The position numbers and the translations under genes were made by a program. The notes under the pieces are model-generated. The model searched no databases. It was not told where the DNA came from and saw nothing but the letters and a program-made list of their open reading frames with translations. A stretch of 64,000 nt of DNA from a virus: IMG/VR virus record IMGVR_UViG_3300042460_000724, positions 46,306-110,305 of that record; one strand, written 5' to 3'. Shown one piece after another: positions 1,236 to 25,190 of the stretch. Positions within the stretch are counted from its first letter, which is position 1; each line of letters starts with the position of its first letter.

Positions 1236-1240
1236 ACACT

Positions 1241-3046: not shown

Positions 3047-3132
3047 TACTTCAAGCCTAAACTCTTGCAAATATGTGCTAGATGGATTTTGTCCGAGCTC
3101 GGTAAGCCCGTAATAAGAATACGTGGTGTCAT
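3046..3132 (-). pseudogene. 28-aa remnant of a P-loop kinase N-terminus, or a leader peptide
   Basis: MTPRILITGLPSSDKIHLAHICKSLGLK* resembles ILIxGLPGSGKTTLA with a broken Walker A. It has an AGGA SD and a late promoter, and its stop overlaps the next ATG. Confidence 0.55.
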
Positions 3133-3148
3133 ACTATTTCCTGTAAAA

Positions 3149-3156
3149 TATTTATA
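3149..3156 (-). promoter_or_regulatory. T4-type late promoter
   Basis: Perfect TATAAATA on the minus strand, intergenic, just upstream of ATG 3132. Confidence 0.7.
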
Positions 3157-3180
3157 ATAGAGACAGTATAACCATTTATT

Positions 3181-3600: not shown

Positions 3601-3620
3601 TTTAAATGTTCCTTATATTA

Positions 3621-3628
3621 TATTTATA
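3621..3628 (-). promoter_or_regulatory. T4-type late promoter
   Basis: TATAAATA on the minus strand upstream of an AAGGAA SD and ATG 3600. Confidence 0.7.
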
Positions 3629-3662
3629 TTAACTTTTCTTGTTTTTTTGTATAACTAAAATA

Positions 3663-6410: not shown

Positions 6411-8115
6411 CTAATGCCCGTTTAAATTCACTGTAGTCAATACGACCAGGTTTGTGTACTTGAATTAACATTCTAGTTGATAATGCTACATTATTCAAGT
6501 GATTTAGGGCATGAGTAAGTTCTTCTTGCGTTATTTTGCCATTAGATAGACGTTGTTGATATGGATCAGTATACTCAAACTGAGTATCACATACTTCGAT
6601 ATCAATATCTTCTTCAAATGCTAGTAATGAATCACTTTCACCTTTATTTGCTTTTTCAAACATATGACGTTTGTTAAACAAGTTAAACATAGCAACAGTA
6701 ATCAATCGTTTATGTGTTGGGTCATCTAATGCAGTATCACAGCGCCAATGTGGAGTTTGTATTTCCCAAACAGCACCATTCTCACTTACACGATATAGTT
6801 CTTTAATAACATCAATGAAGTCTCTACCAGTTTCTCCTAGATGTTCTAATATATCTTTAGCTACAACGTGTGAGTATTCGTTGTCTTTCCATGGCCAAGG
6901 TAGAACACTTAAATCAACCTGTTCATCGGCATCAATGAATGGTGATTTATCAACGTTAACAAATCCATCAAATTTCTTAAAGCCACAACCCAAGTTAAGT
7001 TTCTTAGTGACACGATCCTCATTTGGTTGATCGATATGTTTTAAGTTGAAACGTGCTTCTAGTGCAGTGTAAAGACTTTGGAATGTTGGGTCCCATTTCT
7101 TTGGATCTGTTTGTCTAAAGATTTGTACACATTTGTAGTATGGGCTTGTGTTAGCATCAGGTGAGCCTGGTGTCCACGTATGATACGGGAGTATAGGAAC
7201 GATGACCCATGTTTCTTTACCCATTGCGGCTGCTAAGTGTGCTACACTTGTACAAGATGAGATAACGATATCCATATTAGCAATAGCTGCCATTGTATCT
7301 TCCCAGCTTAACAAGAAGTGTTGCAAGTCAGTTACATTTTCAGGTAGTTGAATAATGTTATGATCCTTTTGCAAACTATATACCTGTAGTTCATCATATT
7401 TTGCTAAGTTAGTGATAAAGTTCTCTGGAAACTTTCTAAATTGTTGATGTTCAAATTTAGGATTGCCTGCCCAACGAATACCAACTTTAATTTTTTCGCT
7501 GTTGACGAATGTTTTCCAAATTTCAATACTATCAGCTTTAGCAGTTAGATAAGGATCGTTTGGAAAGTTTGAGAATTCGTGACCAGCTACCCATCCGGCA
7601 CTAAATCCAGGAACCCAATAATCATGAGGTACAGTATGTGATTGATTTCGTAGTATAACTTTATCTACACCTTCAATACGTTCAAATACTGATACTAGTT
7701 CAGGTGCACAAGCGATGTATACTGATTTTGCACCTTGTTTTTTAAAGCTAGTAGCAAAACGTGCGTGAATGATTTCATCTCCGTACCCACCTTCTAGTGA
7801 TACAATAATAGATTTATCGTTGATAGAATGTTTTTCTGGGTTAAAAATAGGTGCATCTGTTTTAAGAGGAGGGCTACCGTATACATTTAAGAAGCGACCA
7901 TTCTCTAATAGTTGACAGCCTTTTCTATAGTCACCGTCTTGAATCATAAACCAACCACGGTTAAAGCAATGACGCATCCAAATATCTTCTGTATTTTGTC
8001 CTTTAGCGTCTACTATTTTTTCAGGGCCTATGTTTTCTAATTTATCTGATAATATTCTGGCTTCTAGATGTTTACCTTCTAATTGAAGCTTGAGCATCAT
8101 ATCTATTTCGTGCAT
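6394..8115 (-). CDS. GT-B (GT9/heptosyltransferase-like) glycosyltransferase fused to a C-terminal methyltransferase-like domain
   Basis: GT9-like part: EGGYGDEI, VGIRWAGNP, DIVISSCTSVAHLAAAMGK. Methyltransferase-like part: KLNLGCG, GFVNVD, ILEHL, ELYRV. Confidence 0.75.
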   Translation of the reverse strand: MHEIDMMLKLQLEGKHLEARILSDKLENIGPEKIVDAKGQNTEDIWMRHCFNRGWFMIQDGDYRKGCQLLENGRFLNVYGSPPLKTDAPIFNPEKHSINDKSIIVSLEGGYGDEIIHARFATSFKKQGAKSVYIACAPELVSVFERIEGVDKVILRNQSHTVPHDYWVPGFSAGWVAGHEFSNFPNDPYLTAKADSIEIWKTFVNSEKIKVGIRWAGNPKFEHQQFRKFPENFITNLAKYDELQVYSLQKDHNIIQLPENVTDLQHFLLSWEDTMAAIANMDIVISSCTSVAHLAAAMGKETWVIVPILPYHTWTPGSPDANTSPYYKCVQIFRQTDPKKWDPTFQSLYTALEARFNLKHIDQPNEDRVTKKLNLGCGFKKFDGFVNVDKSPFIDADEQVDLSVLPWPWKDNEYSHVVAKDILEHLGETGRDFIDVIKELYRVSENGAVWEIQTPHWRCDTALDDPTHKRLITVAMFNLFNKRHMFEKANKGESDSLLAFEEDIDIEVCDTQFEYTDPYQQRLSNGKITQEELTHALNHLNNVALSTRMLIQVHKPGRIDYSEFKRALDGHKS

Positions 8116-8199: not shown

Positions 8200-11100
8200 T
8201 TACTTAGTAAACCCGAAGTGATTAAAGCCATTTGATACGGTCACTGCAGAGTAACCAACCGACGTAATTGCCGGTATTAATGGGCGATTGTCGTTGAATC
8301 CCCATTCGTATAATACATTGTTAGGATCTATGACAAAAGTACTATTAAAATTCGCAGATACCTGTGTCCAAGATGATGTACCAATTTGTGTAGGCACACT
8401 ATACATATTAGGAGGAGTATATGCTTGATTAGTGCCTAATTGAACTGGGCTGGATTTAGAGATCCTATCATTTAGACCAAGTTGACCACTAGTATTAAGA
8501 CCCCAAACATAAAGTTTGTTATCATTGCGAGTAGCCATCGATGAATTTATATTGGATCCACCTTTATTTAAATTAGTATATATAGAAGTACCAAGTTGTA
8601 CCGGAGCTGATCTAGATAGAATGTCTAATAATCCTAATTGACCATTAGCATTATTACCCCAAGTAAACAAATAGCCATCACTACGTATAGCAAATTGACT
8701 TGCACCAGTTGTTGAAGTGATAGTCCAAGAATCGGTTGCTGTGGGCAAGAATATTGGACTTAATGCAGATGTTACTGAATTAATTCCCAATTCACCATTG
8801 GTATTAGTTCCCCAAGTATATAAACCATATAACTGATCTAATCCAATAGTAAATAGACCACCAGCTGAGACCATAGCCCATGAACTTGTACCAATTTGTA
8901 TTGGGCTTGATTTTGAAATTATTGTACTATCCCCTAATTGACCACTAGTACCTAATCCCCATGTAAATAATAAGTTATCGCTACGTACACCAGCCATATA
9001 GTTTACACCAGAACTAACAGATGTCCAACTAATAGTGCCTAGTTGTACCGGACTACTTCTTAGTATCACATCGTTTGTTCCTAGTTGTCCGCTAGCATTA
9101 TTTCCCCAAACATATAATAGTCCATCACTAGTAATGGCTGCTGTTGCAACACTACCGGCTGAAATAATACTCCAGCTATTTGTACCTATTTGCACAGGAC
9201 TACTTCTGCTTAATATAGCATTGTCACCTATTTGACCATTAGTACCAAGTCCCCACATAAATAGTGCACCATCACTACGTATTGCACCACGTGATGTATT
9301 TTTAGAAATACTTGTCCAAACAGTACCAACGCCAATTTGTACTGGACTACTACGAGAGACTGTATCATTTTGTGCTAATTCACCGTTTGTATTAATACCC
9401 CAAGCCCATAGTTTATTAGTAGCATCAAGAGCCATAAAGTTTGCAAGACCTGTTGATGAAGATACGGTGGTCCAACTACTTGTACCAACTTGTACTGGAC
9501 TACTACGATGTACTAAATTATTTGATGCTAGTTGTCCTGATGCGTTATCACCCCAAGTAAACAATCCACCGTCAATACGAATAGCGACGGTTGATGTAGT
9601 AAATAAACCAACAGCAGTCCAAGAGCTTGTGCCAATTTGTACTGGACTGCTACGAGATATTGTATCATTTAGACCTAGTTGTCCACTAGTACCTAAACCC
9701 CACATAAACAATGCACCGTCACTACGAATGGCAGCACTAGTAGACAGTCCAGTTGATATTGTATTCCAGCTTAAGGCTGCAGGTTTGCTTGTAGTAGTCA
9801 AGTATGTCTGTTGTATCTCTGCACTTGTGAATGAATTTACTTGTACTGGACTAGACCTATTAGCAATGGATCTATCTCCTAATTGTCCACTAGCATTACC
9901 GCCCCAAACATATAATAAATTATTTGTATTAATTGCAGAAGTTGAGCTTTGTCCAGCACTTACTATATTCCAGCTTGTACCAACTTGAACTGGACTACTG
10001 CGGGATAATACTGTAGTATCTCCAAGTTGTCCTGTAGTATTAATACCCCAAGTAAACAATCTATTATCAGATGTAATTCCACCCACAAAAGTTACGCCTG
10101 CACTTATTTGTGCCCAACTACTTGCGCCAATTTGTACCGGAGCAGATCGAGATATGATAGTAGTATCACCTATTTGACCACTAGCGTTAAGACCCCAAGC
10201 AAATAACAAGTTATCAATACGTATACCATATGATGTAGTTCCACCTGAGCTTACTGCATTCCATGACTCATTTATTGATCGGATAAATACTGGACTACTT
10301 CTGGCTCCAAGAGATTCACTTAATCCAAGCTGTCCATTATTATTTTGTCCCCAAATGAAAAGTTGATTATCAGTATAAGTCAACGCCATAGTTACTCCAG
10401 GAGACGTGCCTATACTAACCTGTGACCAACTGCTTGTACCAATTTGTACTGGACTACTACGAGGTAATATTGTATTGTCTCCTAGTTGACCATTAGTATT
10501 AATACCCCAAGACCAAAGAGTGTTGTCAAGACGTAAGGCAGTGGTTGTAGCAAATCCAGTTGATATAACAGACCAACTGCTTGTACCAATTTGTACTGGA
10601 CTACTACGAGGTAATATTGTATTGTCTCCTAGTTGACCATTAGCATTAATACCCCAAGACCACAGTGTAGAGTTAGTTCGGATAGCCATAGCATACGACA
10701 GTCCGGCTGACACACTAGACCAACTGCTTGTACCTATTTGTACTGGACTACTGCGTGGCACGATAGTAGTTGATCCTAATTGTCCACTAGTATTATCTCC
10801 CCAGGAGAAAAGAGCACCATCCAAACGTATAGCATATACACTTACATCTCCGGCACTAACCTTTGTCCAACTACTTGTACCAACTTGTACAGGACTACTA
10901 CGATGTAGTATAGTGCCATCACCTAATTGTCCGGCGTTATTATTACCCCAAGTAAACAATGCACCATCACTACGTATTGCACCAACACAAGCCAGAGTAC
11001 TTACAAGAGTTCCTGTTGCAACACTTCCTGAAACTATAGTCCAGCTACTTGTACCAACTTGTACAGGACTACTGCGATGTACTAAGTCATTTTGACCTAA

Positions 11101-14100
11101 TTGTCCTATTGTATTTAATCCCCATGACCACAACGTATTATCATTACGGATTGCATACATTGCATTATTGCCTATTGATATCTGAGACCAGCTAGTTGTA
11201 CCCAATTGTATTGGACTATTTGTATTAACAGTCGAATTTTGTCCTAGCTGTCCAAATGAATTAATTCCCCAAGTAAACAATGCTCCGTCACTACGTATTG
11301 CCGCTGAACTCCCAATAGACCCACCTGCATTGATTTTGGTCCAACTGAATCCTGTTTTACCGGTAGCAGTTAAGTAAGTACTTTGTAGAGTGTTATTTGT
11401 AAATGAACTAATTTGTACTGGGCTACTCTTGTTAGCCACAAACAGTTGACCAAGTTGTCCACTAGCACCTGCACCCCAACCATATAATACGTTGTCTGCG
11501 GTTAATGCTAAAGTTGTAAAGTCGGTTCCTGCTGTTATTCCACCTGCACTAACAGTAGTCCAACTACTTGTACCTATTTGAACTGGGCTACTACGATGTA
11601 ATATAGTGTCATCACCCAAATTACCAACTGCGTTATTACCCCAAGTAAATAGTGCACCATCACTACGTATACCTGCAAAATGTCCGGCTGAGCTAGATAA
11701 TGCAGTCCAACTATATGCGGTAAACGTATTAGCGGCAGGGTTACCCCAACCATACAATTTGTTATTTGTCTTTATACCTACATTATGGCTATAACCTGCA
11801 CTAATTTTACTCCATGTATCTCCTGTGATTTGTGTAGGCATTGGTTGGTAGCTAGCAATTTGTACTGGACTAGATTTACTTACTACAGTATTATCACCAA
11901 TAGCGCCGTAGCTAGCACCCGAACCCCAACCATAAAACAATAGATTACCATCGAGCACACCGTAACTATTAGTAGATCCAGTACCAATTATAGACCAACT
12001 ACTTAAACTTACTAATGTTGGGCTAGATGTAGCAACAACAGAGTTAATACCTAATTCTCCGCTGCCGTTACCACCCCAAGTATATAGTAACTTAGTAGAA
12101 GTTAACCCTACCATATGGCTTTGACCAACAGTAATTTGTGACCAGCTACTTGTACCAAGTTGGGTTGCACTACTACGGTGGACTAGATCACCTAAACCTA
12201 ATTGTCCATTAGCATTTTGCCCCCATACAAATAATAAACTATCACTGCGTATTGCAGCCGCAGTGTTTACATTCATTGATACTTGTGACCAAGACTCATT
12301 AGCAGTACGAATGAACACCGGGCTAGTAGATTGTGTAACAGTATTATTGCCTATTGCACCAACAGCATTTTGCCCCCATACAAATAATTGCCTGCTTGTG
12401 TTATCTATAGCTGCCGTATTAATATATAATCCACTAACCTTATACCAAGTACTAGTACCAATTTGTACCGGACTAGATCGGGAGATAGCAGTACTATCTC
12501 CTAATTGACCGTTTGTGTTTAGTCCCCAGCCCCATAATGTATTATCACTACGAATAGCAACTGAGTATTGATTACCTGCGTTAACACTTGTCCAACTACT
12601 AGTACCAATCTGTACTGGACTACTTCTAGGGAGAACATTAGTTAAACCTAAACCACCATTAGTATTAATGCCCCATGACCACAATGTATTATTGTTTAGT
12701 AGTCCTACCATGTGTGAGTAACCAACTGCTATTTGACTCCAACTACCTGCACCAAGTTTTACAGGACTAGATTTACTTACTACGGTATTATCACCTAACT
12801 GTCCGTTTGTATTAATTCCCCAAGTGAATAGTCCGCCGTCACTACGCAATGCGGCAGTTATAGCACCATTAGTACTAACCTGTGTCCAACTACTTGTACC
12901 AACTTGTACAGGACTACTACGAGCTACAAGATCACCTAGTCCTAGTTGACCACTAGCATTAATTCCCCAGGCAAATAAAGCACCACCAAGTCGTATTGCA
13001 GTTACAGTCGATATCCCTGCCGCAACACTTGTCCAACTACTAGTACCAATCTGTACTGGACTACTGCGTGGCAATACATCAGTTGTACCTAATTGTCCAC
13101 TAGTATTTAGACCCCACACAAATAATGCTCCATCGTTACGTATAGCATATGTAGAAAAATCTCCCACTGCTACCTGAGTCCAACTGCTTGTGCCAATTTG
13201 TACTGGACTACTACGATGGATGATAGTATTATCTCCTACACCGCCGTTGTTATTAGTTCCCCACGTGAATAATGCTCCATCATTACGTATGGCTGCAGTC
13301 ATACCATTTACACCACCGGAGCTTATTACAGACCAACTAAATGTTGTTGTTCCAGTTGCAGTTAAATAACTATTTTGCTGTGCAAGAGAATATATCGATC
13401 CTACTTGGGTTGGACTACTTTTATTGACAGTATCATTTAAACCAAGACCACCGATGCCGTTAATACCCCATGTAAATAACAAACCATCACTACGTATACC
13501 AGCCATAGTTGTAGCTGCCTTACTATTAATTAAAGTCCAACTACTTGTACCAATTTGTACTGGGCTACTTCTACTAAGTATTGTACTATCCCCTAGTTGA
13601 CCACTAGTACCTAATCCCCAAGTCCATAAACTACCATCATTACGTATAGCCCCAAGTCCACCTACTTTACTCCAAGTAGTATCGGTACCAATTTGAACTG
13701 GACTACTGCGGTGGACTAAATCATTTAACCCTAAATATCCGTCAGTGTTGTTACCCCAAGCCCACAATGTACCATCACTGCGTATAGCTGTAGTCCAAGA
13801 TGTTTCCGAATTAACCTGTATCCAACTACTAGAACCAACTTGTACTGGACTGCTTCTATGAAATATATCACTCAGTCCTAATTGTCCAGATTCGTTAGCT
13901 CCCCAAGTCCATAAACTACCGTCACTACGAATACCAGTGAATCGTAAATTTTGTCCAGTCAATATTGACCAAGATGTTGGAGAATTAACCGGCAATATAA
14001 AGTTTGTGGGACTTAATGTTGGATTATATGGCCATTGTTGATATTGTAATCCCCACCCATACAATGTATTATCTGATGCAATAGCAAGTGAATGTACGTT

Positions 14101-17100
14101 GCCAGCACTTATTTGTGACCAACTACTAGTACCAAGTTGTACTGGACTACTACGATGTAATCCCTCATTATTTACCTGATATGAACTATTATTACCCCAG
14201 GCAAATAATTTATTAGTACTAGAAATAGCAAGCACGTGACTTATACCTGCACTAACTTGTGACCAACTGCTAGCACCTATTTGTGTTGGGCTATTTGAGT
14301 ATGGTGTTGCACCAACTTGTACTGGGCTACTACGATGTTCTAACCAACTACCTGATATAGTTGTTGGATTAAATGCTAATCCTAGTGCTCCATTAGTGTT
14401 ATTACCCCATATATATGCTATACCAGTAGTTGTGATTGCATTGGTTATTCCTGAACCGGCAGCACTAACACTTGCCCAGTCGCTATTATTACCTATTTGA
14501 GTAGGATATGATTTACTAGTTGTAGAATTATCACCCAACTGTCCAAAAGTTGTATTAATTCCCCAAGTAAATAGTTTTCCATCGGATCTAATAGCTGATG
14601 ACAAGCTTTGTCCAGCGCCAACGCTAATCCAGGAATCATTCATTGAGCGAATGAATACCGGGCTACTGCGGCTGGTAATTCCTAATATACCCAATTCTCC
14701 ACTAGTACCAAGTCCCCAAGTAAATAATGCGTTACCTGTATCGGCTGCAGTAATACCTAAAATGTTAGTATAGCCAGTTACCATTGTCCAACTATTTGCA
14801 CCAATTTGTACAGGGAATGATTTAGCAACTGTGGTACCATCACCCAATGATCCAGCAGTATTATTTCCCCAAGCAAACAGTAAACCATCACTTCGTATTC
14901 CTGATAATCCTGCAACAACTGTACCAATTGCAGTCCAAGAATCTGCTACTGAACGAATGAATACTGGGCTGGATCTACCGGCAACAACACCATTACCAAT
15001 AACGCCATCCCCACCTGCAGTAGTTCCCCATGTAAACATTTGCCCATTTGCATCAAGTGCGACTATTGCACTACCTGCATTAACGGTAGTCCAACTACTT
15101 GTACCTGTAGTAAGTGTTGGACTAAAATATGTGTTCACTAGTGAGTTATTACCAAACTGTGCATTAGCTCCACTACCCCACATATATAGTAAATTACCAC
15201 TTATACCGGCTGTGACTGTGCCGCCTGCAGTTACTACACTCCAACTACTTGTACCAATTTGTACAGGACTACTACGATGTTGGGTAGAATCCGGAGTTCC
15301 TAACACACCACTAGTACCTGCACCCCAAGTGAATAATGAACCATCACTGAGAATTGCTACTGTCCATGATAAACCAGATGCTACTGCAGTCCAACTGCTA
15401 CTACCAATTTGTACTGGGCTACTACGATTTAGAGCAGTGCCATCACCTAGTTGTCCAAATGTGTTTACTCCCCATGCATATAATGCGCCAGTAGTACGTA
15501 TAGCATTACTTCTATTATTTGCAGAATAAACTTTTGACCATGTGTTTTCAGTACCGATTTGTACTGGACTACTACGAGCTACTACTGTGTTTAATCCCAG
15601 TTGACCTACATCATTAGCACCCCAACTCCATAATGTACCATCACTACGAACCGCTAATACTGTACCGCCGGTAGTGTTAAACGGTCCTGTTGCAACAGCA
15701 GTCCAACTACTTGTACCAACTTGTACCGGGCTACTACGATGAGCCTGTGTACCATCACCTACAGTACCTGCAGTGTTAACTCCCCAAGTCCATAATGTAT
15801 TATCACTACGTATGGCAGCCGTGAATGATGCTCCTGCTGATACTGTCAACCAGCTATTAGTACCAACTTGTACAGGACTACTACGATGCACTATGTCATT
15901 TAGACCTAATGCGCCATTGATGTTATTACCCCATGCAAACAATAAGCCGTCATTACGAATAGCAAACATTGTATTATTGGTATTTACCACAGTAGACCAA
16001 CTGTAACCAGTCTTACTTGTCTTTGTCAAATATGCCTGTTGTTCTGCAGGTGAAGAGAACGAAACAATTTGTACAGGGCTATTACGAGCAACTACAGTTC
16101 TATCCCCTAATGCACCACCTGAACCAGAACCCCACGTGTACAATGTATTGTTAGCCATTATACCTGCTGTTGTACCAGATGCTTGTGTAGCAACAATATT
16201 CCAATTACTTGTACCAAGTTGTACAGGGCTACTGCGTGAAATTGAGTCACCGATGCCAAGCTCACCGGCTGTATTTAATCCCCATGCAAATAATTTACTA
16301 TCAGTTCGTATTGCAAATGTGCTGTTACCATTTGCTGTTACTAATGTCCAGCTGTTACCCGTACCTACTTGTACTGGGCTACTTCTAGCGATAATATCGT
16401 TTACTCCAAGATTACCAGAACCATTGACTCCCCAACCATATAATTTTCCATCCAACGTAATAGCAAAGGTAGATGTAGCGTTAGTTGTACTATTAGATGG
16501 TACAACTGACCAACTACTTGTGCCTAGTTGAACTGGGCTACTACGATGTACTAAATCATTTAGACCAAGTTGACCATTAAAATTGCCACCCCAAACAAAT
16601 AATAGTCCGTCACTTCTAATAGCGTAAGTATGGCTTATGCCAGCAGCAATACCACTCCAATTACTTGTTCCTATTTGTACCGGACTACTTCTGTGTAGAA
16701 TATCATTTAAACCAAGTTGTCCGATACTGTTAGTTCCCCATGCAAATAACTTACTATCGCTACGAATAGCAAATGAAGTAGATGCACCTGCGGTTACTGT
16801 AGTCCAACTCAATGTTCTAGGTTTACCTGTACTAGTTGACCAAGCAATTTCATCAGCTAATGTAATTAGTGATGAAATTATTACAGGTAATAAGATTGTT
16901 CCTGGAGCATTACCTGTACCCAATTGACCATTATCATTATTGCCCCAACCGTATAAAACATTGTCCATGGTTAAAGCTAATGTATGAGTAGAGCCGGTGC
17001 TTATCATAGTCCAGCTACTTGTACCAACTTGTACTGGACTTGATTTTAGTATGACGGTGTTGTCCCCCAATTGACCAACATCATTATTACCCCATGACCA

Positions 17101-20100
17101 TAATGTTTTATCATTACGAATGGCCGCGGTAAATGTATCACCCTGTGCAACTTGGTACCAAGTATTAATAGTTGCATTTACTTGCACTGGGCTACTAGTA
17201 TCTACTACACTGTTAATACCTAATTCACCGACTGTATTACCGCCCCATGCGTATAAATACCCATTACCATTAGTGTAGTCCTGTATTATTCCCATGCGTC
17301 CAGCAACCATAGTCCAACTACTTGAACCAATTTGTACTGGACTAGATTTATTTACAATTGAGTTGTCACCTAATCCACCATACGTATTATTACCCCAAGT
17401 AAATAAGGCTCCATCACTTCTTATTGCAGAAACAACGTATGCATTTCCAATATCACCAGATTGTCCTGCACTAACCATAATCCAGCTACTTGTACCAACC
17501 TGTACTGGACTACTGCGATGTACTGTGTCATTAAGGCCCAATTGTCCTTGGCTATTAAGTCCCCATGACCACAAATAATTATTAGTGTCAATACTAAAAG
17601 CATTACCGAAGCCTGCCGCTAGTTGTTTCCAACTACCGGTACCTATTTGTACTGGACTACTTCTATTAATACCATCATTCTCTCCTAACTCCCCTACGGT
17701 ATTTTTACCCCATGACCACAATGTTCCATCTAATCGTATACCATAGGACGATGAATCCAATCCTGACACCGCTGAGGTCCAAAGTAAATTACCAATCTGT
17801 ACTGGACTACTACGAGCTACAACAGTATTATCTCCTATTTGTCCTGAATTATTGAAACCCCAAGCCCATAACGTACCATCAATACGTATAGCGATGGGAG
17901 TTAGTCTTCCAGCAGAAACCATATTCCAGCTACTTGTACCAACCTGTACAGGACTACTTCTGAGAAGACCACTAACGTTTGCACCTAATGCACCTAATGA
18001 ATTATCAGTTCCCCATGACCAAAGTGATTTGTCACTACTACGTATAGCAAATAAAAATCCTTGTCCAGCACTAACCATAGTCCAACTACTAGTACCAATC
18101 TGCACAGGGCTACTACGATGTATTTGATTATTTGTACCTAATTGACCGTATGTATTACTACCCCAAGACCATAAACTACCATCACTTCTTATGCCTGCCG
18201 CAGTTTGTGTGCCATCTACTGGCATACTAGATCCTGATAGATATGTCCAACTTAATAAATCTTTACCTAACTGTATTGGTTGGGATCTATTTATAACATT
18301 ATTTTGTCCTAATTGACCACTAGTCCCTAGACCCCAAAGCCAAAGTGTATTATCATTACGTATACCAGCGACATGGTTTGAGTTAAAACTTCCTTCACCT
18401 ATACTTGTCCAAGAATCATTCATAGAGCGAATGAATACAGGTGTAGACATAGTTACCATGTTACCGTCACCTATTTGGCCGTCAGTACCAATACCCCAAG
18501 TATATAATTGACCGGCTGAAGTAATACCCATACCGCCTGATGACCCAGCCGGTACTATAGTCCAACTACTAGTAGTAACTTGTAATGGTAATGATTGGTT
18601 ACCTGGGTTGCCACCTAACGCACCAAATCCATTATATCCCCATCTAAATAACAAACCATCACTACGCACAGCTCCATATTCATCTGTACCTGAACTTACA
18701 TAAGTCCATGAATCAAATATACCTGCACGAATAAATACTGGGCTAGAACGTTGCAATATAGTATTATCACCTACACCACCTTGTGTGTTGCCTGCCCAAG
18801 TAAACAACACACCGTTACTATCTATTGCAGTAGCTCCATTAACAAAAGTCCAACTACTACTACCTATTAGTACTGGGCTGTTTTTATTAGCAGTTGTATT
18901 ATCACCCAATTCGCCGTTAGTATTTAAACCCCAAGCAAACAATGCACCATCATTACGTATTCCATACATAGTAGATGTCCAACTGTTGACATAATTCCAT
19001 GTATTAGTTCCAACTTGTACGGGACTGCTACGATGCACTGAACTGGCTGCCCCTAATTGACCAGACCCATTAGCCCCCCAAGTAAACAATGCACCATTAC
19101 TACTTATAGCACCAGTGAATGACCCGCCTAACGCAACCATAGTCCAACTACTTGTGCCTAGTTGAACTGGGCTACTACGAGCTACTGCATCATTAAATCC
19201 TAACTGCCCCAGTGTATTATCACCCCATATAAATAAAGCACCGTCTGTTCGTATGGCAGCTAAATTTGTACCAAAATTAGTGCCGCTTGCTACCATAGTC
19301 CAACTACTACTACCAACTTGTACCGGACTACTTCGATTTACTGCGTCATTTAGTCCTAATTGGCCTACTGTATTAGCTCCCCAAGCCCATAAACCACCGC
19401 CACTTTTAATAGCGGCCATCGGTCCTATGGATGATCCGGATGCTAGTTTTATCCAATCAGTATCAGTACCGACCTGTACCGGGCTACTGCGATGTATTTG
19501 ATTATTTTGTCCTAATGAACCTTCATCATTACGACCCCATGTCCATAATGTTCCATCTATTTTGATTGCGGCTGCATATGATGTGCCTCCAGCAATTGCA
19601 GCCCAACTACTTGTACCGATTTGCACAGGGCTACTACGATGTACTAAATCATTTAGACCTAATTGTCCTATAGTATTTTGTCCCCATGAAAATAACAATC
19701 CATCACTACGTAATGCCAATCTAGTATTACTACCTGTAGTAAATGTCAAATTGGCTACAGTAGTCCAACTAAGCGGTGTTACTCCTATGGTAGTTAAATA
19801 TGTTTGTTGTTGTGCTGATGTTCTAATTGAAGTTATTTGTACTGGACTACTTTTGTTTATCCCCAGTCCTTCACCAAGATAGGTACCTGTGCCCCAAGAA
19901 TACAACGCACCATCTGTAGTTATTCCCATTGTGACACTTGTTCCACTAGTGACCATAGTCCAACTACTTGTACCAATTTGTATTGGGCTAGATTTTGCAA
20001 CTAATGTGGTGTCACCCAATTGACCATTAGTATTAACACCCCACGTAAATAAGTTACCTGTAGTAGTTATGGCGGCGGTCATGCCAGAACCAGCACTGAC

Positions 20101-21354
20101 CATAGTCCAACTACTTGTGCCTAGTTGAACTGGACTACTGCGATGTACACCAACGTCATTGAGACCTAATTGTCCATTAGTGTTATTTCCCCAAACCCAT
20201 AATGCACCGTTTGTGTCTATGGCAGCAACGTTATCCTGACTAACCGCACCGTTAGTTATTACTTTACTCCAAATAGTAGCGGTACCAACTTGTACTGGAC
20301 TACTTCTATTAATAATGTTATTTGATCCCAACTGCCCGGCTGCATTATACCCCCATGACCACAAAGTATTGTCTGCTCGTATTGCAAGTGTAGCAAATCC
20401 GTTAGCAGATACGCTAGACCAACTGCTAGTACCAACTTGTACTGGGCTACTACGTCTAACAATATCATTTAATCCCAAATTACCATAAGTATTAAGTCCC
20501 CAAGCAAATAATGCACCATCATTTCTTATAGCAAACATTGACCATGCGGCACCATACGATACTGCTGTCCAACTAAGTTGTGTAGTAGCTATACTAGATA
20601 CATATGACTGTTGGATTTGAACTGAAGTTAATGAACCAGTTAAGGTAGGGCTTGAAAGATTATTTGTATTATTATTACCTCCTTGCCCTTGACCAGCACT
20701 ACCCCATACCCACAGTGTACTATCAGAACGTAGTGCTGTGCGTGTTGTTCCGCCACTTCCGCCTAATGCAGACCAAGTACTTGTACCAATTTGTACTGGA
20801 CTACTGCGATGTACTGTGTCATTAAGGCCCAATTGTCCTTGGCTATTAATACCACCGATAGCCCACATTGTACCATCAGATTCTATACCTATAGTATTTC
20901 CGGCCAGTACTTGAGTCCAACTGTTTGCCGCCCAAGATGATAACATACTATTATTACCAAGTTGACCGTTAAACCCTAATCCCCAAGCAAACATTAATCC
21001 ATCATTATTAATAGCATAAGAAGTATCACCGTTAGTACTAACCGCACTCCAATTATTAACACCTATCTGTACTGGGCTACTACGATGTGCTAATGTAAGA
21101 TCATTATTGCCTAATTGACCATATGTATTGGCGCCCCATCCAAATAGTTTACCGTCACTACGAATACCTATAGTATGACTTAATCCACTTGCAACTTGGC
21201 TCCATGATTGTGTACCGATTAATACTGGACTAGATTTAAAAACTGTATTTTCTGTTCCGAGTTGACCCCAAGTGTTGTCACCGAACATATATAATGATTC
21301 AATATCACCGCCGGTTGATGGTTGGACTGTTAATAACCATTTTTCTAATAACAT
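8200..21354 (-). CDS. Giant RCC1/BLIP-II repeat protein (about 84 blades, 12 seven-bladed propellers), probable virion adhesin
   Basis: 4384 aa of roughly 50-aa repeats with consensus SWxxVSAG...AIRSDGxLFxWGxNxxGQLG...RSSPVQIG. Confidence 0.9.
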   Translation of the reverse strand: MLLEKWLLTVQPSTGGDIESLYMFGDNTWGQLGTENTVFKSSPVLIGTQSWSQVASGLSHTIGIRSDGKLFGWGANTYGQLGNNDLTLAHRSSPVQIGVNNWSAVSTNGDTSYAINNDGLMFAWGLGFNGQLGNNSMLSSWAANSWTQVLAGNTIGIESDGTMWAIGGINSQGQLGLNDTVHRSSPVQIGTSTWSALGGSGGTTRTALRSDSTLWVWGSAGQGQGGNNNTNNLSSPTLTGSLTSVQIQQSYVSSIATTQLSWTAVSYGAAWSMFAIRNDGALFAWGLNTYGNLGLNDIVRRSSPVQVGTSSWSSVSANGFATLAIRADNTLWSWGYNAAGQLGSNNIINRSSPVQVGTATIWSKVITNGAVSQDNVAAIDTNGALWVWGNNTNGQLGLNDVGVHRSSPVQLGTSSWTMVSAGSGMTAAITTTGNLFTWGVNTNGQLGDTTLVAKSSPIQIGTSSWTMVTSGTSVTMGITTDGALYSWGTGTYLGEGLGINKSSPVQITSIRTSAQQQTYLTTIGVTPLSWTTVANLTFTTGSNTRLALRSDGLLFSWGQNTIGQLGLNDLVHRSSPVQIGTSSWAAIAGGTSYAAAIKIDGTLWTWGRNDEGSLGQNNQIHRSSPVQVGTDTDWIKLASGSSIGPMAAIKSGGGLWAWGANTVGQLGLNDAVNRSSPVQVGSSSWTMVASGTNFGTNLAAIRTDGALFIWGDNTLGQLGFNDAVARSSPVQLGTSSWTMVALGGSFTGAISSNGALFTWGANGSGQLGAASSVHRSSPVQVGTNTWNYVNSWTSTMYGIRNDGALFAWGLNTNGELGDNTTANKNSPVLIGSSSWTFVNGATAIDSNGVLFTWAGNTQGGVGDNTILQRSSPVFIRAGIFDSWTYVSSGTDEYGAVRSDGLLFRWGYNGFGALGGNPGNQSLPLQVTTSSWTIVPAGSSGGMGITSAGQLYTWGIGTDGQIGDGNMVTMSTPVFIRSMNDSWTSIGEGSFNSNHVAGIRNDNTLWLWGLGTSGQLGQNNVINRSQPIQLGKDLLSWTYLSGSSMPVDGTQTAAGIRSDGSLWSWGSNTYGQLGTNNQIHRSSPVQIGTSSWTMVSAGQGFLFAIRSSDKSLWSWGTDNSLGALGANVSGLLRSSPVQVGTSSWNMVSAGRLTPIAIRIDGTLWAWGFNNSGQIGDNTVVARSSPVQIGNLLWTSAVSGLDSSSYGIRLDGTLWSWGKNTVGELGENDGINRSSPVQIGTGSWKQLAAGFGNAFSIDTNNYLWSWGLNSQGQLGLNDTVHRSSPVQVGTSSWIMVSAGQSGDIGNAYVVSAIRSDGALFTWGNNTYGGLGDNSIVNKSSPVQIGSSSWTMVAGRMGIIQDYTNGNGYLYAWGGNTVGELGINSVVDTSSPVQVNATINTWYQVAQGDTFTAAIRNDKTLWSWGNNDVGQLGDNTVILKSSPVQVGTSSWTMISTGSTHTLALTMDNVLYGWGNNDNGQLGTGNAPGTILLPVIISSLITLADEIAWSTSTGKPRTLSWTTVTAGASTSFAIRSDSKLFAWGTNSIGQLGLNDILHRSSPVQIGTSNWSGIAAGISHTYAIRSDGLLFVWGGNFNGQLGLNDLVHRSSPVQLGTSSWSVVPSNSTTNATSTFAITLDGKLYGWGVNGSGNLGVNDIIARSSPVQVGTGNSWTLVTANGNSTFAIRTDSKLFAWGLNTAGELGIGDSISRSSPVQLGTSNWNIVATQASGTTAGIMANNTLYTWGSGSGGALGDRTVVARNSPVQIVSFSSPAEQQAYLTKTSKTGYSWSTVVNTNNTMFAIRNDGLLFAWGNNINGALGLNDIVHRSSPVQVGTNSWLTVSAGASFTAAIRSDNTLWTWGVNTAGTVGDGTQAHRSSPVQVGTSSWTAVATGPFNTTGGTVLAVRSDGTLWSWGANDVGQLGLNTVVARSSPVQIGTENTWSKVYSANNRSNAIRTTGALYAWGVNTFGQLGDGTALNRSSPVQIGSSSWTAVASGLSWTVAILSDGSLFTWGAGTSGVLGTPDSTQHRSSPVQIGTSSWSVVTAGGTVTAGISGNLLYMWGSGANAQFGNNSLVNTYFSPTLTTGTSSWTTVNAGSAIVALDANGQMFTWGTTAGGDGVIGNGVVAGRSSPVFIRSVADSWTAIGTVVAGLSGIRSDGLLFAWGNNTAGSLGDGTTVAKSFPVQIGANSWTMVTGYTNILGITAADTGNALFTWGLGTSGELGILGITSRSSPVFIRSMNDSWISVGAGQSLSSAIRSDGKLFTWGINTTFGQLGDNSTTSKSYPTQIGNNSDWASVSAAGSGITNAITTTGIAYIWGNNTNGALGLAFNPTTISGSWLEHRSSPVQVGATPYSNSPTQIGASSWSQVSAGISHVLAISSTNKLFAWGNNSSYQVNNEGLHRSSPVQLGTSSWSQISAGNVHSLAIASDNTLYGWGLQYQQWPYNPTLSPTNFILPVNSPTSWSILTGQNLRFTGIRSDGSLWTWGANESGQLGLSDIFHRSSPVQVGSSSWIQVNSETSWTTAIRSDGTLWAWGNNTDGYLGLNDLVHRSSPVQIGTDTTWSKVGGLGAIRNDGSLWTWGLGTSGQLGDSTILSRSSPVQIGTSSWTLINSKAATTMAGIRSDGLLFTWGINGIGGLGLNDTVNKSSPTQVGSIYSLAQQNSYLTATGTTTFSWSVISSGGVNGMTAAIRNDGALFTWGTNNNGGVGDNTIIHRSSPVQIGTSSWTQVAVGDFSTYAIRNDGALFVWGLNTSGQLGTTDVLPRSSPVQIGTSSWTSVAAGISTVTAIRLGGALFAWGINASGQLGLGDLVARSSPVQVGTSSWTQVSTNGAITAALRSDGGLFTWGINTNGQLGDNTVVSKSSPVKLGAGSWSQIAVGYSHMVGLLNNNTLWSWGINTNGGLGLTNVLPRSSPVQIGTSSWTSVNAGNQYSVAIRSDNTLWGWGLNTNGQLGDSTAISRSSPVQIGTSTWYKVSGLYINTAAIDNTSRQLFVWGQNAVGAIGNNTVTQSTSPVFIRTANESWSQVSMNVNTAAAIRSDSLLFVWGQNANGQLGLGDLVHRSSATQLGTSSWSQITVGQSHMVGLTSTKLLYTWGGNGSGELGINSVVATSSPTLVSLSSWSIIGTGSTNSYGVLDGNLLFYGWGSGASYGAIGDNTVVSKSSPVQIASYQPMPTQITGDTWSKISAGYSHNVGIKTNNKLYGWGNPAANTFTAYSWTALSSSAGHFAGIRSDGALFTWGNNAVGNLGDDTILHRSSPVQIGTSSWTTVSAGGITAGTDFTTLALTADNVLYGWGAGASGQLGQLFVANKSSPVQISSFTNNTLQSTYLTATGKTGFSWTKINAGGSIGSSAAIRSDGALFTWGINSFGQLGQNSTVNTNSPIQLGTTSWSQISIGNNAMYAIRNDNTLWSWGLNTIGQLGQNDLVHRSSPVQVGTSSWTIVSGSVATGTLVSTLACVGAIRSDGALFTWGNNNAGQLGDGTILHRSSPVQVGTSSWTKVSAGDVSVYAIRLDGALFSWGDNTSGQLGSTTIVPRSSPVQIGTSSWSSVSAGLSYAMAIRTNSTLWSWGINANGQLGDNTILPRSSPVQIGTSSWSVISTGFATTTALRLDNTLWSWGINTNGQLGDNTILPRSSPVQIGTSSWSQVSIGTSPGVTMALTYTDNQLFIWGQNNNGQLGLSESLGARSSPVFIRSINESWNAVSSGGTTSYGIRIDNLLFAWGLNASGQIGDTTIISRSAPVQIGASSWAQISAGVTFVGGITSDNRLFTWGINTTGQLGDTTVLSRSSPVQVGTSWNIVSAGQSSTSAINTNNLLYVWGGNASGQLGDRSIANRSSPVQVNSFTSAEIQQTYLTTTSKPAALSWNTISTGLSTSAAIRSDGALFMWGLGTSGQLGLNDTISRSSPVQIGTSSWTAVGLFTTSTVAIRIDGGLFTWGDNASGQLASNNLVHRSSPVQVGTSSWTTVSSSTGLANFMALDATNKLWAWGINTNGELAQNDTVSRSSPVQIGVGTVWTSISKNTSRGAIRSDGALFMWGLGTNGQIGDNAILSRSSPVQIGTNSWSIISAGSVATAAITSDGLLYVWGNNASGQLGTNDVILRSSPVQLGTISWTSVSSGVNYMAGVRSDNLLFTWGLGTSGQLGDSTIISKSSPIQIGTSSWAMVSAGGLFTIGLDQLYGLYTWGTNTNGELGINSVTSALSPIFLPTATDSWTITSTTGASQFAIRSDGYLFTWGNNANGQLGLLDILSRSAPVQLGTSIYTNLNKGGSNINSSMATRNDNKLYVWGLNTSGQLGLNDRISKSSPVQLGTNQAYTPPNMYSVPTQIGTSSWTQVSANFNSTFVIDPNNVLYEWGFNDNRPLIPAITSVGYSAVTVSNGFNHFGFTK

Positions 21355-21357: not shown

Positions 21358-21867
21358 TTAACCACCAAACATAGGCCAAATAATATTAAAAGGATCTGTC
21401 TGCGTAGTAATATCTGCTAATGCTTGCATATATGCATCCATTAATGTTAAATCATCTACAGTGGGTTCACCTAATCTAAGTTGTCTATCATATCGAGTGT
21501 ATCGCCATTCAAAATCTTTCATCTTTGTATCACGTTCACCTCTTATCAAATTCCATTGATCTCTAGTACGTAGTTCTTGTTGTAGCTGTATATCTTCAGG
21601 CGAGGGTTCGTATATCACTGATTTAGGTAGCTCAATAATATCCATTGTTTCATACGCAACACCATCAGTAAAATACTGTCTAGGATTATCTATTTTTTGT
21701 GTTTCTGGATTATATTCAGGGTATGCTTTTACTAATGTATACCAACCAAATGATAAACGTTCTTCTTCTGTAAGTGCATAAAAATTACTGATATTTTTCC
21801 AATTATTTGGAATAAGGTCGTATACACCTTCTATATTACCGTCAACAATATGAGCATAATTAGCCAT
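21358..21867 (-). CDS. Phage tail/fibre assembly chaperone-like protein
   Basis: C-terminal WNLIRGERD...YMQALADIT...IIWP pattern. Start revised to ATG 21867 (TAATG overlap with the upstream gene). Confidence 0.7.
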   Translation of the reverse strand: MANYAHIVDGNIEGVYDLIPNNWKNISNFYALTEEERLSFGWYTLVKAYPEYNPETQKIDNPRQYFTDGVAYETMDIIELPKSVIYEPSPEDIQLQQELRTRDQWNLIRGERDTKMKDFEWRYTRYDRQLRLGEPTVDDLTLMDAYMQALADITTQTDPFNIIWPMFGG

Positions 21868-22259
21868 TATAAATTTTGTCCTGAAACAAATGCCTGCCAA
21901 TTTATACCACCATCAGTAGTAAAAAAGGTGAATACATCTTCTTTGTTATTACTTGATGTTAATGTAGGAGCAGTTCCTCCTGGCCAGTGAAAGCTAGCAG
22001 GCCAAGTAACTGAACGAGCAGTACCATCAGCAGTGAAAACTAGTACAAATGAACTTGCTCTACCTGCTGATTGTATGTTAGAGAATGTGATAGATGTGAT
22101 GTTAGAATTTAAAGCGACATTGAATACAGTAGCGATATTTAAATTTAGTGTTAAAACGCCGGCACTAATAGTAGCAGTCGCACTAACTTCTGCTGAATTG
22201 TTTGGTAAAAATACCTTATTGTCGTCAATTACGGTCGACCCGATTACTTTAATTGCCAT
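21867..22259 (-). CDS. Small beta-rich fibre adaptor protein
   Basis: 130 aa. VTWPASFHWPGGTAPTLT...DVFTFFTTDGG.NW resembles phage fibre C-terminal domains. AAGGAG SD. Confidence 0.65.
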   Translation of the reverse strand: MAIKVIGSTVIDDNKVFLPNNSAEVSATATISAGVLTLNLNIATVFNVALNSNITSITFSNIQSAGRASSFVLVFTADGTARSVTWPASFHWPGGTAPTLTSSNNKEDVFTFFTTDGGINWQAFVSGQNL

Positions 22260-22286
22260 CTTCGCTCCTTTGAACTCGGCTACTAC

Positions 22287-22294
22287 TATTTATC
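22287..22294 (-). promoter_or_regulatory. Late-promoter-like element
   Basis: GATAAATA overlapping the upstream stop codon. Confidence 0.45.
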
Positions 22295-25190
22295 TTTTTT
22301 TGAGAGCGTCTATATCCTCTTGCTGTTTTTTAACAGCCTCGATTAAGAATGCTATAATGGGTATATAGTTAACAGCTTTTTTACCTTGACTATTAGTACT
22401 TACTAACTCTGGTAATATTTTTTCAACCATTTGCGCCATTAAACCATATGATTTTTTCTTACTGTCTGTCCAATTGAAACCCATACCAAACAACTGTGAC
22501 AATATTGACATTGGATCTGTGATTGATTGAGGGTTCTCTTTTAGTGTTGCGTCAGACAATGTGTTTAAATCCTGTACAGTTAATTGTCCTGTACTTGGAA
22601 TAAACTGTAGTTTAGTTGTTGTTATACCAGCAGTTAATAACCCACCAGAAGTACTTGTTGCATATACAGGGTAAAAAGTTGAACCAGAACTTGTATTATC
22701 AGTGATTATTGGAGTGGCTTGGGCCCAAGTTACATTTCCAGAACCATTTGTCTGTAAAAATTGATTAGCGGTCCCGTTAGCAATACGTAAGTTAGCTACT
22801 GCACCCAAGTTAATATTGCTTGAGTTTTGAAACTCAACTGTTGTCACGTTTGCAAAGTTAGCTACATTAGCAGTAAAGCTAATATTAGCCGTTGCATTGC
22901 TTACTGTTAAACCAGTTAGTGTACCAACACTTGTAATGTTTGGTTGACTTGATGCCCCTGATACAATTGTACCATAGAAGTAATTAGCACTAATATAGTT
23001 AGCACCAATAATGTTACCGCCTGCGCCCGCACCAGCAATAATATTACCTGTAATATTAGCATTGCCTGCAACGTTTGCACCAGTGCTTGTAACAATCAAT
23101 ACATTAGCATTACCGCCAACGCCAACTGTTACATTTCCGTTAGCAGCCGGTATGCTTATGTTACTATTGCCATTACTGAATACACCTGTAAAATAATTTG
23201 CACTAATTAAGTTAGCACCTGTAATACTACCACCAGTACCAGATCCTGCACTAAGATTGCTAACTGCTACGTTACCGCTATAGTTTGCTGTATTACCAGT
23301 TAATAATCCCGACACAGTTAAACTTGATAATGTACCAACACTTGTAATATTTGGTTGTGAGGCTGTTGTTAATGTACCAGTAAATGTATTAGCACTAATA
23401 TCATTAGCTCCGGATATATTGCTGCCTGTTAATGTTACATTACTACCAAATGCTACGTTGCCTGTAATATTAGCAGTACCATTAATATTTGCACCCGTGC
23501 TAGTTACAACTACAATGTTTGCGTTACCACCTACACTTGTAGTTACATTTCCACCGGCTGTCGCAATGTCAACAATACTTGTACCGTTACTAATATATGC
23601 GGCGCCGCCACCGCCGCCAGCAGGAACCCAACTTAAGTTACCAGCACCGTCTGTTTGTAATACATAGCCATTAGTACCGCCCGTAATACGTACATTAGCA
23701 ACTGTACCTAACGATACATTAGCACCGCTTAGTGCTACATTACCGGTAGTATTTAATGTACCGGCAACATTAACACCGGTGCCAGTAATTACCATAATTG
23801 TATTGCCAACTGCAGTAAAATTAATATTACCATTTGCTGTAGGTATATTTACAGTACTATTACCATTTGCAATATTACTTCCGCCACCTCCTCCGGATTG
23901 TGCTACCCAACTTAATGTCCCTGAGCCATCTGTTTGTAATACATAACCACTAGTACCACCCGAGATATGCAAATTACTAACTGCGCCCAATGTTACGTTA
24001 GCAGAGGTTGTAAAATCAACTATTCCTGTTGCGTTACTTACTGTTAAACCAGTCAACGAACCAACTGAAGTTATATTTGGTTGTGCCGCTGTTGTCAATG
24101 AACCAGATACTGTAGTAAAATAACCACCGGTAGCACCTATATTACCTGCGTTAGCATTACCCGTAGCATTTAATGTTCCTGCTACATTAGTACCAGTGCC
24201 AGTTACAATCATAATGTTTGCGTTACCGACTGCGCTAAATGTTATATTCCCGTTAGCAGAGGGAATATTTACATTACTATTGCCATTTGACATACTTGCC
24301 GGGGTCACATCAACACCCGTTAAGAAAGCACCATTACCAATGAAGTATGGAGCATTAACATTACCAGTAATATTTGCATAGCCTGCAACGTTAACACCTG
24401 TACCGGTAATTTTCATTATATTAGCATTGCCAACCGCATTGAATGTGATATTCCCGTTAGCGGTTGGAATATTTACATTACTATTGCCATTTGAAATATT
24501 AGCTGGGTTTGTGTCTACACCGGTTAAGAATGCACCATTACCGATGAAGTACGGGGCATTAATGTTACCAGTGACATTTGCATAGCCTGCAACGTTAACA
24601 CCGGTACTCGTTACAACCATAATGTTTGCGGTACCGGCTACACTAGTAGTTACATTTCCACCTGAGGTTGCAATAGTTAAATTACTTGTTCCATTGACCA
24701 CTCTACCGGCAGCATCTATTCCGGTCAACTGACTACCATTACCAATAAAGTAATTACCGGATATATTACCGGCAACATTAATACCGACACCAGTAATAAC
24801 CATTGTTGTGTTACCGGCAGCTGTTAGGTTAATATTTCCATTTGCACTTGGGATATTTACGTTACTATTGCCATTTGAGTGTGGTCCTAATATATTACCA
24901 AATGAACCATTACCTGTTACGGTTACACTATATAATGTACCTAGTGAAGTAATATTTGGTTGTGCATTTGTATATACTGTACCTGAAATTAGAGCATTAC
25001 CTACTTGTCCAGAGATGTTACCGGCTGGTAAACTTGTTAGATTTGCACCTGATCCGCTGAAGAAATTAGCTATTGCTAGATTACCCAAATTAGCGTTTAA
25101 TGAAGATAGGTTACCCGTAGCATTTACGTTATTGAACGTAAAATTTTCTGTTGAATCTATGACGTACGGTTCTATCTGTATTAAAGCCAT
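22290..25190 (-). CDS. Fibre 'stalk' protein with a C-terminal intramolecular chaperone (peptidase S74-like) domain
   Basis: G/N/T-rich AQPNITSVG repeats; C-terminal LSDATLKEN...GLMAQMVEKILPELV...VNY...LIEAVKKQQ. Confidence 0.8.
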   Translation of the reverse strand: MALIQIEPYVIDSTENFTFNNVNATGNLSSLNANLGNLAIANFFSGSGANLTSLPAGNISGQVGNALISGTVYTNAQPNITSLGTLYSVTVTGNGSFGNILGPHSNGNSNVNIPSANGNINLTAAGNTTMVITGVGINVAGNISGNYFIGNGSQLTGIDAAGRVVNGTSNLTIATSGGNVTTSVAGTANIMVVTSTGVNVAGYANVTGNINAPYFIGNGAFLTGVDTNPANISNGNSNVNIPTANGNITFNAVGNANIMKITGTGVNVAGYANITGNVNAPYFIGNGAFLTGVDVTPASMSNGNSNVNIPSANGNITFSAVGNANIMIVTGTGTNVAGTLNATGNANAGNIGATGGYFTTVSGSLTTAAQPNITSVGSLTGLTVSNATGIVDFTTSANVTLGAVSNLHISGGTSGYVLQTDGSGTLSWVAQSGGGGGSNIANGNSTVNIPTANGNINFTAVGNTIMVITGTGVNVAGTLNTTGNVALSGANVSLGTVANVRITGGTNGYVLQTDGAGNLSWVPAGGGGGAAYISNGTSIVDIATAGGNVTTSVGGNANIVVVTSTGANINGTANITGNVAFGSNVTLTGSNISGANDISANTFTGTLTTASQPNITSVGTLSSLTVSGLLTGNTANYSGNVAVSNLSAGSGTGGSITGANLISANYFTGVFSNGNSNISIPAANGNVTVGVGGNANVLIVTSTGANVAGNANITGNIIAGAGAGGNIIGANYISANYFYGTIVSGASSQPNITSVGTLTGLTVSNATANISFTANVANFANVTTVEFQNSSNINLGAVANLRIANGTANQFLQTNGSGNVTWAQATPIITDNTSSGSTFYPVYATSTSGGLLTAGITTTKLQFIPSTGQLTVQDLNTLSDATLKENPQSITDPMSILSQLFGMGFNWTDSKKKSYGLMAQMVEKILPELVSTNSQGKKAVNYIPIIAFLIEAVKKQQEDIDALKKR

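Follow-up and report, generated by a model that had tools for sequence, protein, structure and literature searches.

A giant phage RCC1 protein whose joints point to propellers inserted within propellers

The reading frame and its joints

The DNA analysed here (the window) is the terminal 64 kb of a 110-kb virus record in IMG/VR (IMGVR_UViG_3300042460_000724), which, at a CheckV completeness of 31%, represents a fragment of a phage of about 350 kb. On its minus strand, window positions 8200-21354 encode a giant protein made of RCC1 repeats, and here we examine how the blades of this protein are joined and whether they form propellers set within propellers. An earlier note, made from the letters of this DNA, had described a single polypeptide at this place, and the locus indeed holds one intact open reading frame (ORF) of 4384 amino acids (aa), stop-free across 13 kb, in which all Pfam matches are RCC1 repeats. 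The scores lie well above the family cut-offs for PF25390 (364.6 bits, cut-off 150) and PF00415 (330.3 bits, cut-off 21.7), both at aa 239-981. In frame there are 76 RCC1 repeat matches, 75 of them above cut-off, and counting the W-G anchor of each repeat gives 84 blades.

The ORF is a real, conserved gene of an uncultured large phage. Three homologs from other assemblies (4367-4388 aa, 84 blades, 66-69% identity) are collinear with it, with at most one indel of 8 or more residues, and its cluster of identical sequences counts 16 members. A giant ORF of this kind could also arise when repeats are misassembled, which would inflate or scramble it, and collapse of repeats does occur in the family. 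The NCBI protein P0007 (2605 aa), encoded on a contig of 9 kb, has 99% of its 7-mers in common with P0005 (4388 aa) and differs from it by seven deletions of 1-8 blades (1, 2, 3 and 8) between identical repeat edges, a caution for short-read assemblies of this gene family. For the ORF studied here, such an artefact is nevertheless extremely improbable, given the three collinear homologs, the identical cluster and the lack of a stop in 13 kb.

The strands of a repeat are labelled in sequence order as b1 (SSPVQI), b2 (SWxxVSAG), b3 (xxAIRSDG) and b4 (xLFxWG), after which a GQLG loop of about 15 residues leads to the next repeat. Because the b1-b2 turn is tight, b1 is inferred to be the innermost strand. 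To avoid hand-picking of unusual joints, the distance between the P of SSPVQ and the W that follows was measured at all 83 joints. Canonical joints have a turn of 7-9 residues. A turn of 10 or more, or a missing or doubled strand, occurs at exactly the 22 boundaries of the parse in the earlier note, including both atypical joints of its middle child (propeller E, aa 1031-1392). Two further joints are flagged by a mutated anchor only (P to A after blade 59, W to Y after blade 82), their turns being canonical in length.

Two kinds of joint recur. Open linkers, seven in number, have the form S-x-x-S...QQxYLT...SW and carry about 20 extra residues each. Close motifs, also seven, read PVFIRxxx[DE]SW and lie at about nucleotides (nt) 18741, 18441, 14967, 14661, 12321, 10293 and 8757, the last being a PIFLP variant. 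Besides these linkers there are eight atypical joints. All open and close motifs fall within about 50 nt of the figures first given for them, and they pair like brackets, as had been claimed: each of the innermost open-close pairs (5/5) encloses exactly 7 blades, and 14 blades lie within each of the two outer pairs, which leaves 5+2. The gene and its open linkers are as follows, with the evidence in brackets:

8200..21354, minus strand: whole RCC1 gene, 4384 aa, 84 blades (ORF, Pfam, collinear homologs)
20575-20634, minus strand: open linker O1 (motif)
19771-19833, minus strand: open linker O2 (motif)
16810-16872, minus strand: open linker O3, divergent, with ADEIAW (motif)
16003-16062, minus strand: open linker O4 (motif)
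13339-13398, minus strand: open linker O5 (motif)
11347-11406, minus strand: open linker O6 (motif)
9775-9834, minus strand: open linker O7 (motif)

Read as brackets, the joints divide the chain into a putative root propeller in four pieces (aa 1-144, 2349-2460, 3168-3214 and 4308-4384) and eleven further candidate propellers, A to K:

20923..21354, minus strand: root piece a, the N-terminal outer strand of the closing blade and blades 1-3; ends in the short joint NSMLSSWAAN without an inner strand (joints)
14311..20922, minus strand: propeller F (blades 4, 5, 20, 28, 29, 44, 45) with three guests, 42 blades in all, set into a root loop (joints, arithmetic, register)
18427..20574, minus strand: propeller B (blades 6-10, 18-19), holding A; entry O1, exit PVFIR (joints, register)
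18727-19770, minus strand: propeller A (blades 11-17), guest of B; entry O2, exit PVFIR (joints, register)
17179..18264, minus strand: propeller E (blades 21-27), guest of F; joints GKDLLSW and NATINTW (joints, register)
14647..16809, minus strand: propeller D (blades 30-34, 42-43), holding C; entry O3 (joints, register)
14953-16002, minus strand: propeller C (blades 35-41), guest of D; entry O4 (joints, register)
13975..14310, minus strand: root piece b, the returning inner strand SPTQIG right after SSPVQVG of F, and blades 46-47 (joints; motif invariant in 5 homologs)
11854..13974, minus strand: propeller G (blades 48-51, 59-61), holding H (joints)
12307-13338, minus strand: propeller H (blades 52-58), guest of G; entry O5 (joints)
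11713..11853, minus strand: root piece c, the returning inner strand MPTQITG and blade 62; ends in the short joint NTFTAY without an inner strand (joints, homologs)
8434..11712, minus strand: propeller I (blades 63-64, 72-74, 82-83), holding J and K (joints)
10279-11346, minus strand: propeller J (blades 65-71), guest of I; entry O6 (joints)
8743-9774, minus strand: propeller K (blades 75-81), guest of I; entry O7; absent with both linkers in homolog P0006 (joints, homolog)
8203..8433, minus strand: root piece d, the returning inner strand SVPTQIG, blade 84 and three C-terminal strands without a fourth (sequence, homologs)

The three root insertions and the middle child were found where the earlier note had placed them. 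The fourth strand of the closing blade of the root would most simply come from the N-terminal LYMFG strand, and the same three-plus-one pattern at the chain ends is also present in 14- and 21-blade relatives.

Nested or tandem propellers

With a probability of about 0.7, we regard the product as a protein of RCC1 blades only, in which twelve seven-bladed propellers would be joined by domain insertion and not in tandem; the chain would then fold into a three-dimensional tree of propellers. Alternatively, every seven consecutive blades could form one propeller, resulting in a tandem string of twelve beads, where the open and close motifs are longer or variant loops. However, the open and close sites stand at every phase of a seven-blade frame (after blades 5, 10, 17, 19, 29, 34 and so on), yet they always bracket 7 or 14 blades. 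The unusual joints cut the chain into 23 runs of 3, 2, 5, 7, 2, 1, 7, 2, 5, 7, 2, 2, 2, 4, 7, 3, 1, 2, 7, 3, 7, 2 and 1 blades. Repeated removal of an internal 7, with joining of its neighbours, collapses these run lengths to a single 7. None of 300,000 randomly drawn separator sets collapsed fully, and when the observed run lengths were shuffled 300,000 times, 4 of the shuffles did so. At each level the number of blades is an exact multiple of 7, and the leftovers sum to 7, with 3+2+1+1 for the root. The layout put forward in the earlier note, 12 x 7 = 84 blades on four levels with a root drawn from both termini and three internal stretches, came through all of the sequence-based and comparative tests.

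A further line of evidence comes from the register of the blades, compared on blade cores with the linker strands excluded. Under the nested parse, 40 of the 66 propeller pairs score best in register, whereas random rotations average 9.6 such pairs and reach 20 at most. Tandem parses place 5-9 of 66 pairs in register, with no blade-register homology at any of the seven offsets. Blades at the same position show an excess similarity with a z of about 7 for the nested parse and zero for tandem. Root, F, B, D and G, all of them discontinuous hosts, share the register of contiguous guests; nine host-guest pairs involving these hosts share one register, G-H tying with another rotation, while the pairs I-J and I-K are not in the common register. 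As hosts and guests share a blade register and are not circularly permuted, insertion of whole propellers is favoured over a re-partitioned tandem duplication.

The inner strands follow the same brackets. After root blades 3 and 62, the W-G strand runs straight into the next SW without an SSPVQ strand, and an extra strand of SSPVQ type immediately follows the final strand of the guest, 42 blades later in the first case and 21 blades later in the second. The joint at blade 47 is degenerate, and its extra strand returns after 14 blades. These missing and returning strand motifs are invariant in 5 homologs. In homolog P0006 (4048 aa, 59% identical), linker O7, propeller K and its close motif are lacking; here, the SSPVQV strand of the host joins directly to a canonical GTSSW turn, followed by the next host blade. 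Without K, its flanks thus make an ordinary hairpin. The claim that the protein grew by insertion of whole propellers gains support from this loss of exactly one propeller with its linkers, together with the common register of hosts and guests. A tandem string accounts neither for inner strands that are absent or doubled, nor for the clean loss of K, nor for the full reducibility, and we consider it improbable, even though 14-blade relatives without an unusual joint and 7-linker-7 relatives (P0215, P0230) speak for it, as does one structure model.

That model is one of two that AlphaFold2 produced for sub-trees of the chain, each from an alignment of 5 sequences (4 full-length relatives each), and several of the points that weigh against nesting lie here. 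Neither model is a confident structure: model 1 (aa 239-981; 5+7+2 blades) has a pLDDT (predicted local distance difference test score) of 57 and a pTM (predicted template modelling score) of 0.45, and model 2 (aa 2460-3181; 4+7+3 blades) has a pLDDT of 53 and a pTM of 0.49. In model 1, the seventh inner blade is unplaced and the outer 5+2 ring is not seen. The expectation that nt 20640-18410 would give two propellers, the outer one discontinuous, is thus not reproduced. In model 2, the best matches cover residues 1-411 (UVR8, Z 28.8, root-mean-square deviation 3.5 Å, 327 aligned), and the ring consists of four G blades, open linker O5 and three H blades, which is the tandem outcome at low confidence. 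The earlier note had named closure of seven consecutive blades across a linker as a result that would contradict nesting; taken formally, model 2 has this property, while model 1 departs from the tandem rule as well, all of its top RCC1 alignments beginning at residues 288-290, right after open linker O2, a hint for nesting. Given the low confidence and the different rules that the two models follow, model 2 is given little weight. For both of these low-confidence models, the best fold matches are RCC1-type propellers such as UVR8 and HERC2 (Z 28-29, about 330 residues aligned), and both models have a short helix in the open linkers. The use of the two models as evidence on topology was dropped, their VIA-align matches being mutually contradictory and of low confidence.

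Two other points belong on the same side. The boundaries of propeller E rest on 2-residue differences (both joints are just 2 residues longer than canonical) together with arithmetic and register. Furthermore, relatives of 14 blades with uniformly tight joints exist, such as that of the phage BUCT-ZZ01 described below, and a canonical turn alone therefore does not exclude a change of ring.

In a third possibility, nesting is partial. The contiguous open-to-close units would be true propellers, whereas what is left of the hosts would form open arcs or rings between the subunits of an oligomeric fibre, or F and E would be arranged otherwise. The strong motifs directly bound contiguous guests only, closure of the hosts being inferred from counts, and the joints of propeller E are near-canonical. 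Fibre proteins, moreover, are mostly oligomeric. Against this, the leftover counts total exactly 7 at every level, the root with its 3+2+1+1 included, and the discontinuous hosts are in blade register with the contiguous guests. For F and E, the parse of the earlier note is in register and an alternative split is out of register. The ordinary hairpin that P0006 forms from the flanks of K argues in the same direction. We regard partial nesting as unlikely, though less so than the tandem string.

Full nesting, as we read it, would use two modes of insertion. In the hairpin mode, the chain would leave the host after b1, usually via the conserved linker of about 20 residues (QQxYLT), possibly with a short helix. 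The guest would then make seven blades, its final b1 strand (PVFIR) closing its own first blade, and the chain would re-enter the host at b2 (xxxDSW). Propeller E would be inserted in this mode with two extra residues per side. In the loop mode, proposed for the three root guests, the chain would exit after b4 without b1, and the missing b1 would return directly after the last b1 of the guest. The root ring would be closed by three C-terminal strands and one N-terminal strand.

Known propellers and relatives

Among solved structures, UVR8 is the best sequence match (E 8e-47). Along a propeller, 31 solved chains match; they have 370-536 residues and a single RCC1-type propeller each, and a 32nd match, to a 2484-residue myosin, is marginal (E 8e-4). 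The likeness to RCC1, UVR8, the RCC1-like domains of HERC1 and HERC2, RPGR and BLIP-II is that of the same repeat family, all of them seven-bladed rings. Unlike these single domains, the protein described here would have twelve propellers per chain, mostly discontinuous, and no role in nucleotide exchange or chromatin is implied. A search of the literature on nested, inserted or discontinuous propellers and on phage RCC1 proteins found no description of propellers within propellers; the earlier note, too, had known of none. The hits to 'RCC1' in a prasinovirus paper were discarded, as they refer to culture-collection strain numbers.

The nearest precedent is human UBR5, in which the RCC1 domain is discontinuous, with a UBA domain after blade 1 and two small beta domains after blade 4 (bioRxiv 10.1101/2022.11.03.515015). 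Here as well, the chain exits between blades, forms other domains and returns. However, the guests of UBR5 are small unrelated domains on flexible tethers at one level, whereas the phage protein would take whole RCC1 propellers as guests, with conserved entry and exit motifs, on four levels and with up to three guests per host. Other propeller families tolerate insertion of whole domains, such as the I-domain in the propeller of the integrin alpha subunit, and rings can be completed by sequence-remote strands, as when Sec13 is completed by a blade from Nup145C or Sec31. In none of these cases is the guest itself a propeller, and the insertion is not recursive.

RCC1 proteins are also found in phages. 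The cultured, T4-like Synechococcus phage BUCT-ZZ01 encodes UTS52180.1, a protein of 700 aa and 14 blades with 44.5% identity to the B+A segment. Its locus (L037:5634-8233, plus strand) has the same fibre-chaperone-RCC1 gene order, including a 166-aa homolog of a 180-aa chaperone-like protein of the window. In S-SRM01, the RCC1 genes gp335, gp337 and gp344 lie beside a long tail fibre gene and sugar-modifying genes. In contrast to the protein studied here, these cyanophage RCC1 proteins are limited to one or two propellers and lack the open and close linkers; they are annotated as 'BNR repeat domain protein' (BUCT-ZZ01) or 'regulator of chromosome condensation'. For phage phAPEC6, the available part of the report lists eleven RCC1-like proteins, names no prokaryotic function for them and does not place them in the virion (PMC7247149).

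The wider family comprises at least 599 members of 2,400-7,600 residues, besides thousands with 14 or 21 blades. A search for related loci gave 1 distant viral locus plus 27 from metagenomes, none of the latter above 39% identity, the DNA of the close homologs not being among them. In a set of 113 giant but distant relatives there are 202 brackets that pair a joint lacking the strand with a joint carrying it twice; 85 of the 202 hold a multiple of 7 blades (14% expected), and 49 hold exactly 7. Automatic classification of joints in homologs and distant relatives is not robust (13 of 234 fully reduced), and the homologs were read by hand. No PVF-type close motif was found seven blades after long linkers in distant relatives, which makes this motif specific to the present subfamily.

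The earlier note had also asked whether homologs differ in units of seven blades. When 240 relatives were compared by 7-mer sharing, related pairs differed mainly by 0, 7, 14, 28 or 35 blades; there were smaller counts at 1-3, 6 and 8 blades, part of which are blade-detection slips. The 8-blade indel of P0007, of the kind named in the earlier note as contradicting nesting, was set aside, since P0007 is a copy of P0005 with collapsed repeats. Relatives also gain and lose LamG domains at the hairpin site used here, and the site would seem to be a general socket for gain or loss of whole propellers or LamG domains. A 3711-aa metagenomic relative (L010:5711-16843, plus strand) has LamG-like domains of about 200-450 residues interrupting its RCC1 blades, with seven strand-less short joints of the TYSW type and double-strand joints further along the chain.

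Among small relatives, a 3+7+4 parse is seen at about 740 aa (P0177, P0204, P0209 and P0225, 14 blades) and a 2+3+7+4+5 parse at about 1100 aa (P0157, P0151, P0166 and P0188, 21 blades). The proteins P0122-P0241 (400-1300 aa) form sharp clusters at about 740 and 1100 residues (14 and 21 blades); several have nested run patterns, others are tandem-looking 7-linker-7 chains, and many are without a marked joint. These small relatives (about 740 and 1,100 residues), together with the cultured cyanophage BUCT-ZZ01, make the idea of nesting testable.

The tail fibre neighbourhood and a possible role

The RCC1 gene lies in a tail fibre and baseplate module, with fibre, chaperone and LamG baseplate-wedge-like genes directly upstream on the same strand:

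21358..21900, minus strand: tail fibre assembly chaperone-like protein, 180 aa, upstream, ending 4 nt before the RCC1 start codon (PF16778, phrog_4912)
21867..25190, minus strand: upstream tail fibre genes, 130 aa and 966 aa, the latter with a Peptidase_S74 chaperone end (Pfam, PHROGs)
25244-29890 and 42887-47749, minus strand: giant paralogs (1548 and 1620 aa), each with six Laminin_G_3 domains and a He_PIG Ig domain (PHROGs 'baseplate wedge subunit', 'virion structural protein')

From this gene context, the protein would most likely be a branched, multivalent surface-binding module for a receptor or glycan, on or near the tail fibres. The earlier note had called it a dendrimer-like multivalent adhesin; the nested parse behind that term stands up to the sequence tests, while the fold was not reproduced by AlphaFold2 and the adhesin role comes from the gene neighbourhood only. 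Other observations count against such a role. Pfam and PHROGs find RCC1 only, and no virion attachment or fibre shaft domain, in the N- and C-terminal pieces, and neither a signal nor a virion attachment domain was found in the RCC1 protein. The upstream chaperone may serve the preceding fibre instead. Besides, the PHROGs category of the RCC1 family is 'regulator of chromosome condensation', not tail. Comparison of the flanking fibre genes with phages by megablast gave no match.

Taking architecture, family and context together, we lean towards a reading in which a four-level branched tree of twelve same-fold domains would follow a two-socket grammar with dedicated entry and exit motifs. These sockets would be used family-wide, in phage proteins of 14 to 112 blades, to gain and lose propellers and LamG lectin domains, and would amount to an undescribed recursive route to multivalent host-binding surfaces. 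If true, this would be an extreme case of domain insertion, with recursive nesting of the same fold and up to three guests per host. One ring would be built from pieces 4,300 residues apart, a hard case for folding theory and structure predictors. It would also provide a concrete rule, open to testing, by which hundreds of giant RCC1 proteins that lack annotation in phage metagenomes could be read, and suggest how large phages extend and rearrange the surfaces that bind the host, namely by inserting entire binding domains at fixed sockets.

Directly downstream on the same strand (128-8115, minus strand) lies a sugar cluster encoding a PfkB-like kinase, UDP-galactopyranose mutase (Glf), a GT2 protein, two methyltransferases and a GT25 protein; it includes a 573-aa protein with a methyltransferase-like part. 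The RCC1 protein is possibly sugar-modified by the enzymes encoded there. Exact TATAAATA motifs stand in intergenic gaps at 8167, 3621 and 3149, and TATAAATA is not enriched in the window (9 observed, 15 expected). Further upstream, a 1931-aa ORF (37058-42853, minus strand) has a G+C content of 0.43 against about 0.38, no PHROG match and NigD_N, below cut-off, as its sole Pfam match. Two adjacent 300-aa paralogs (34861-35763 and 35772-36683, both minus strand) match the same part of phrog_2295, a family of unknown function.

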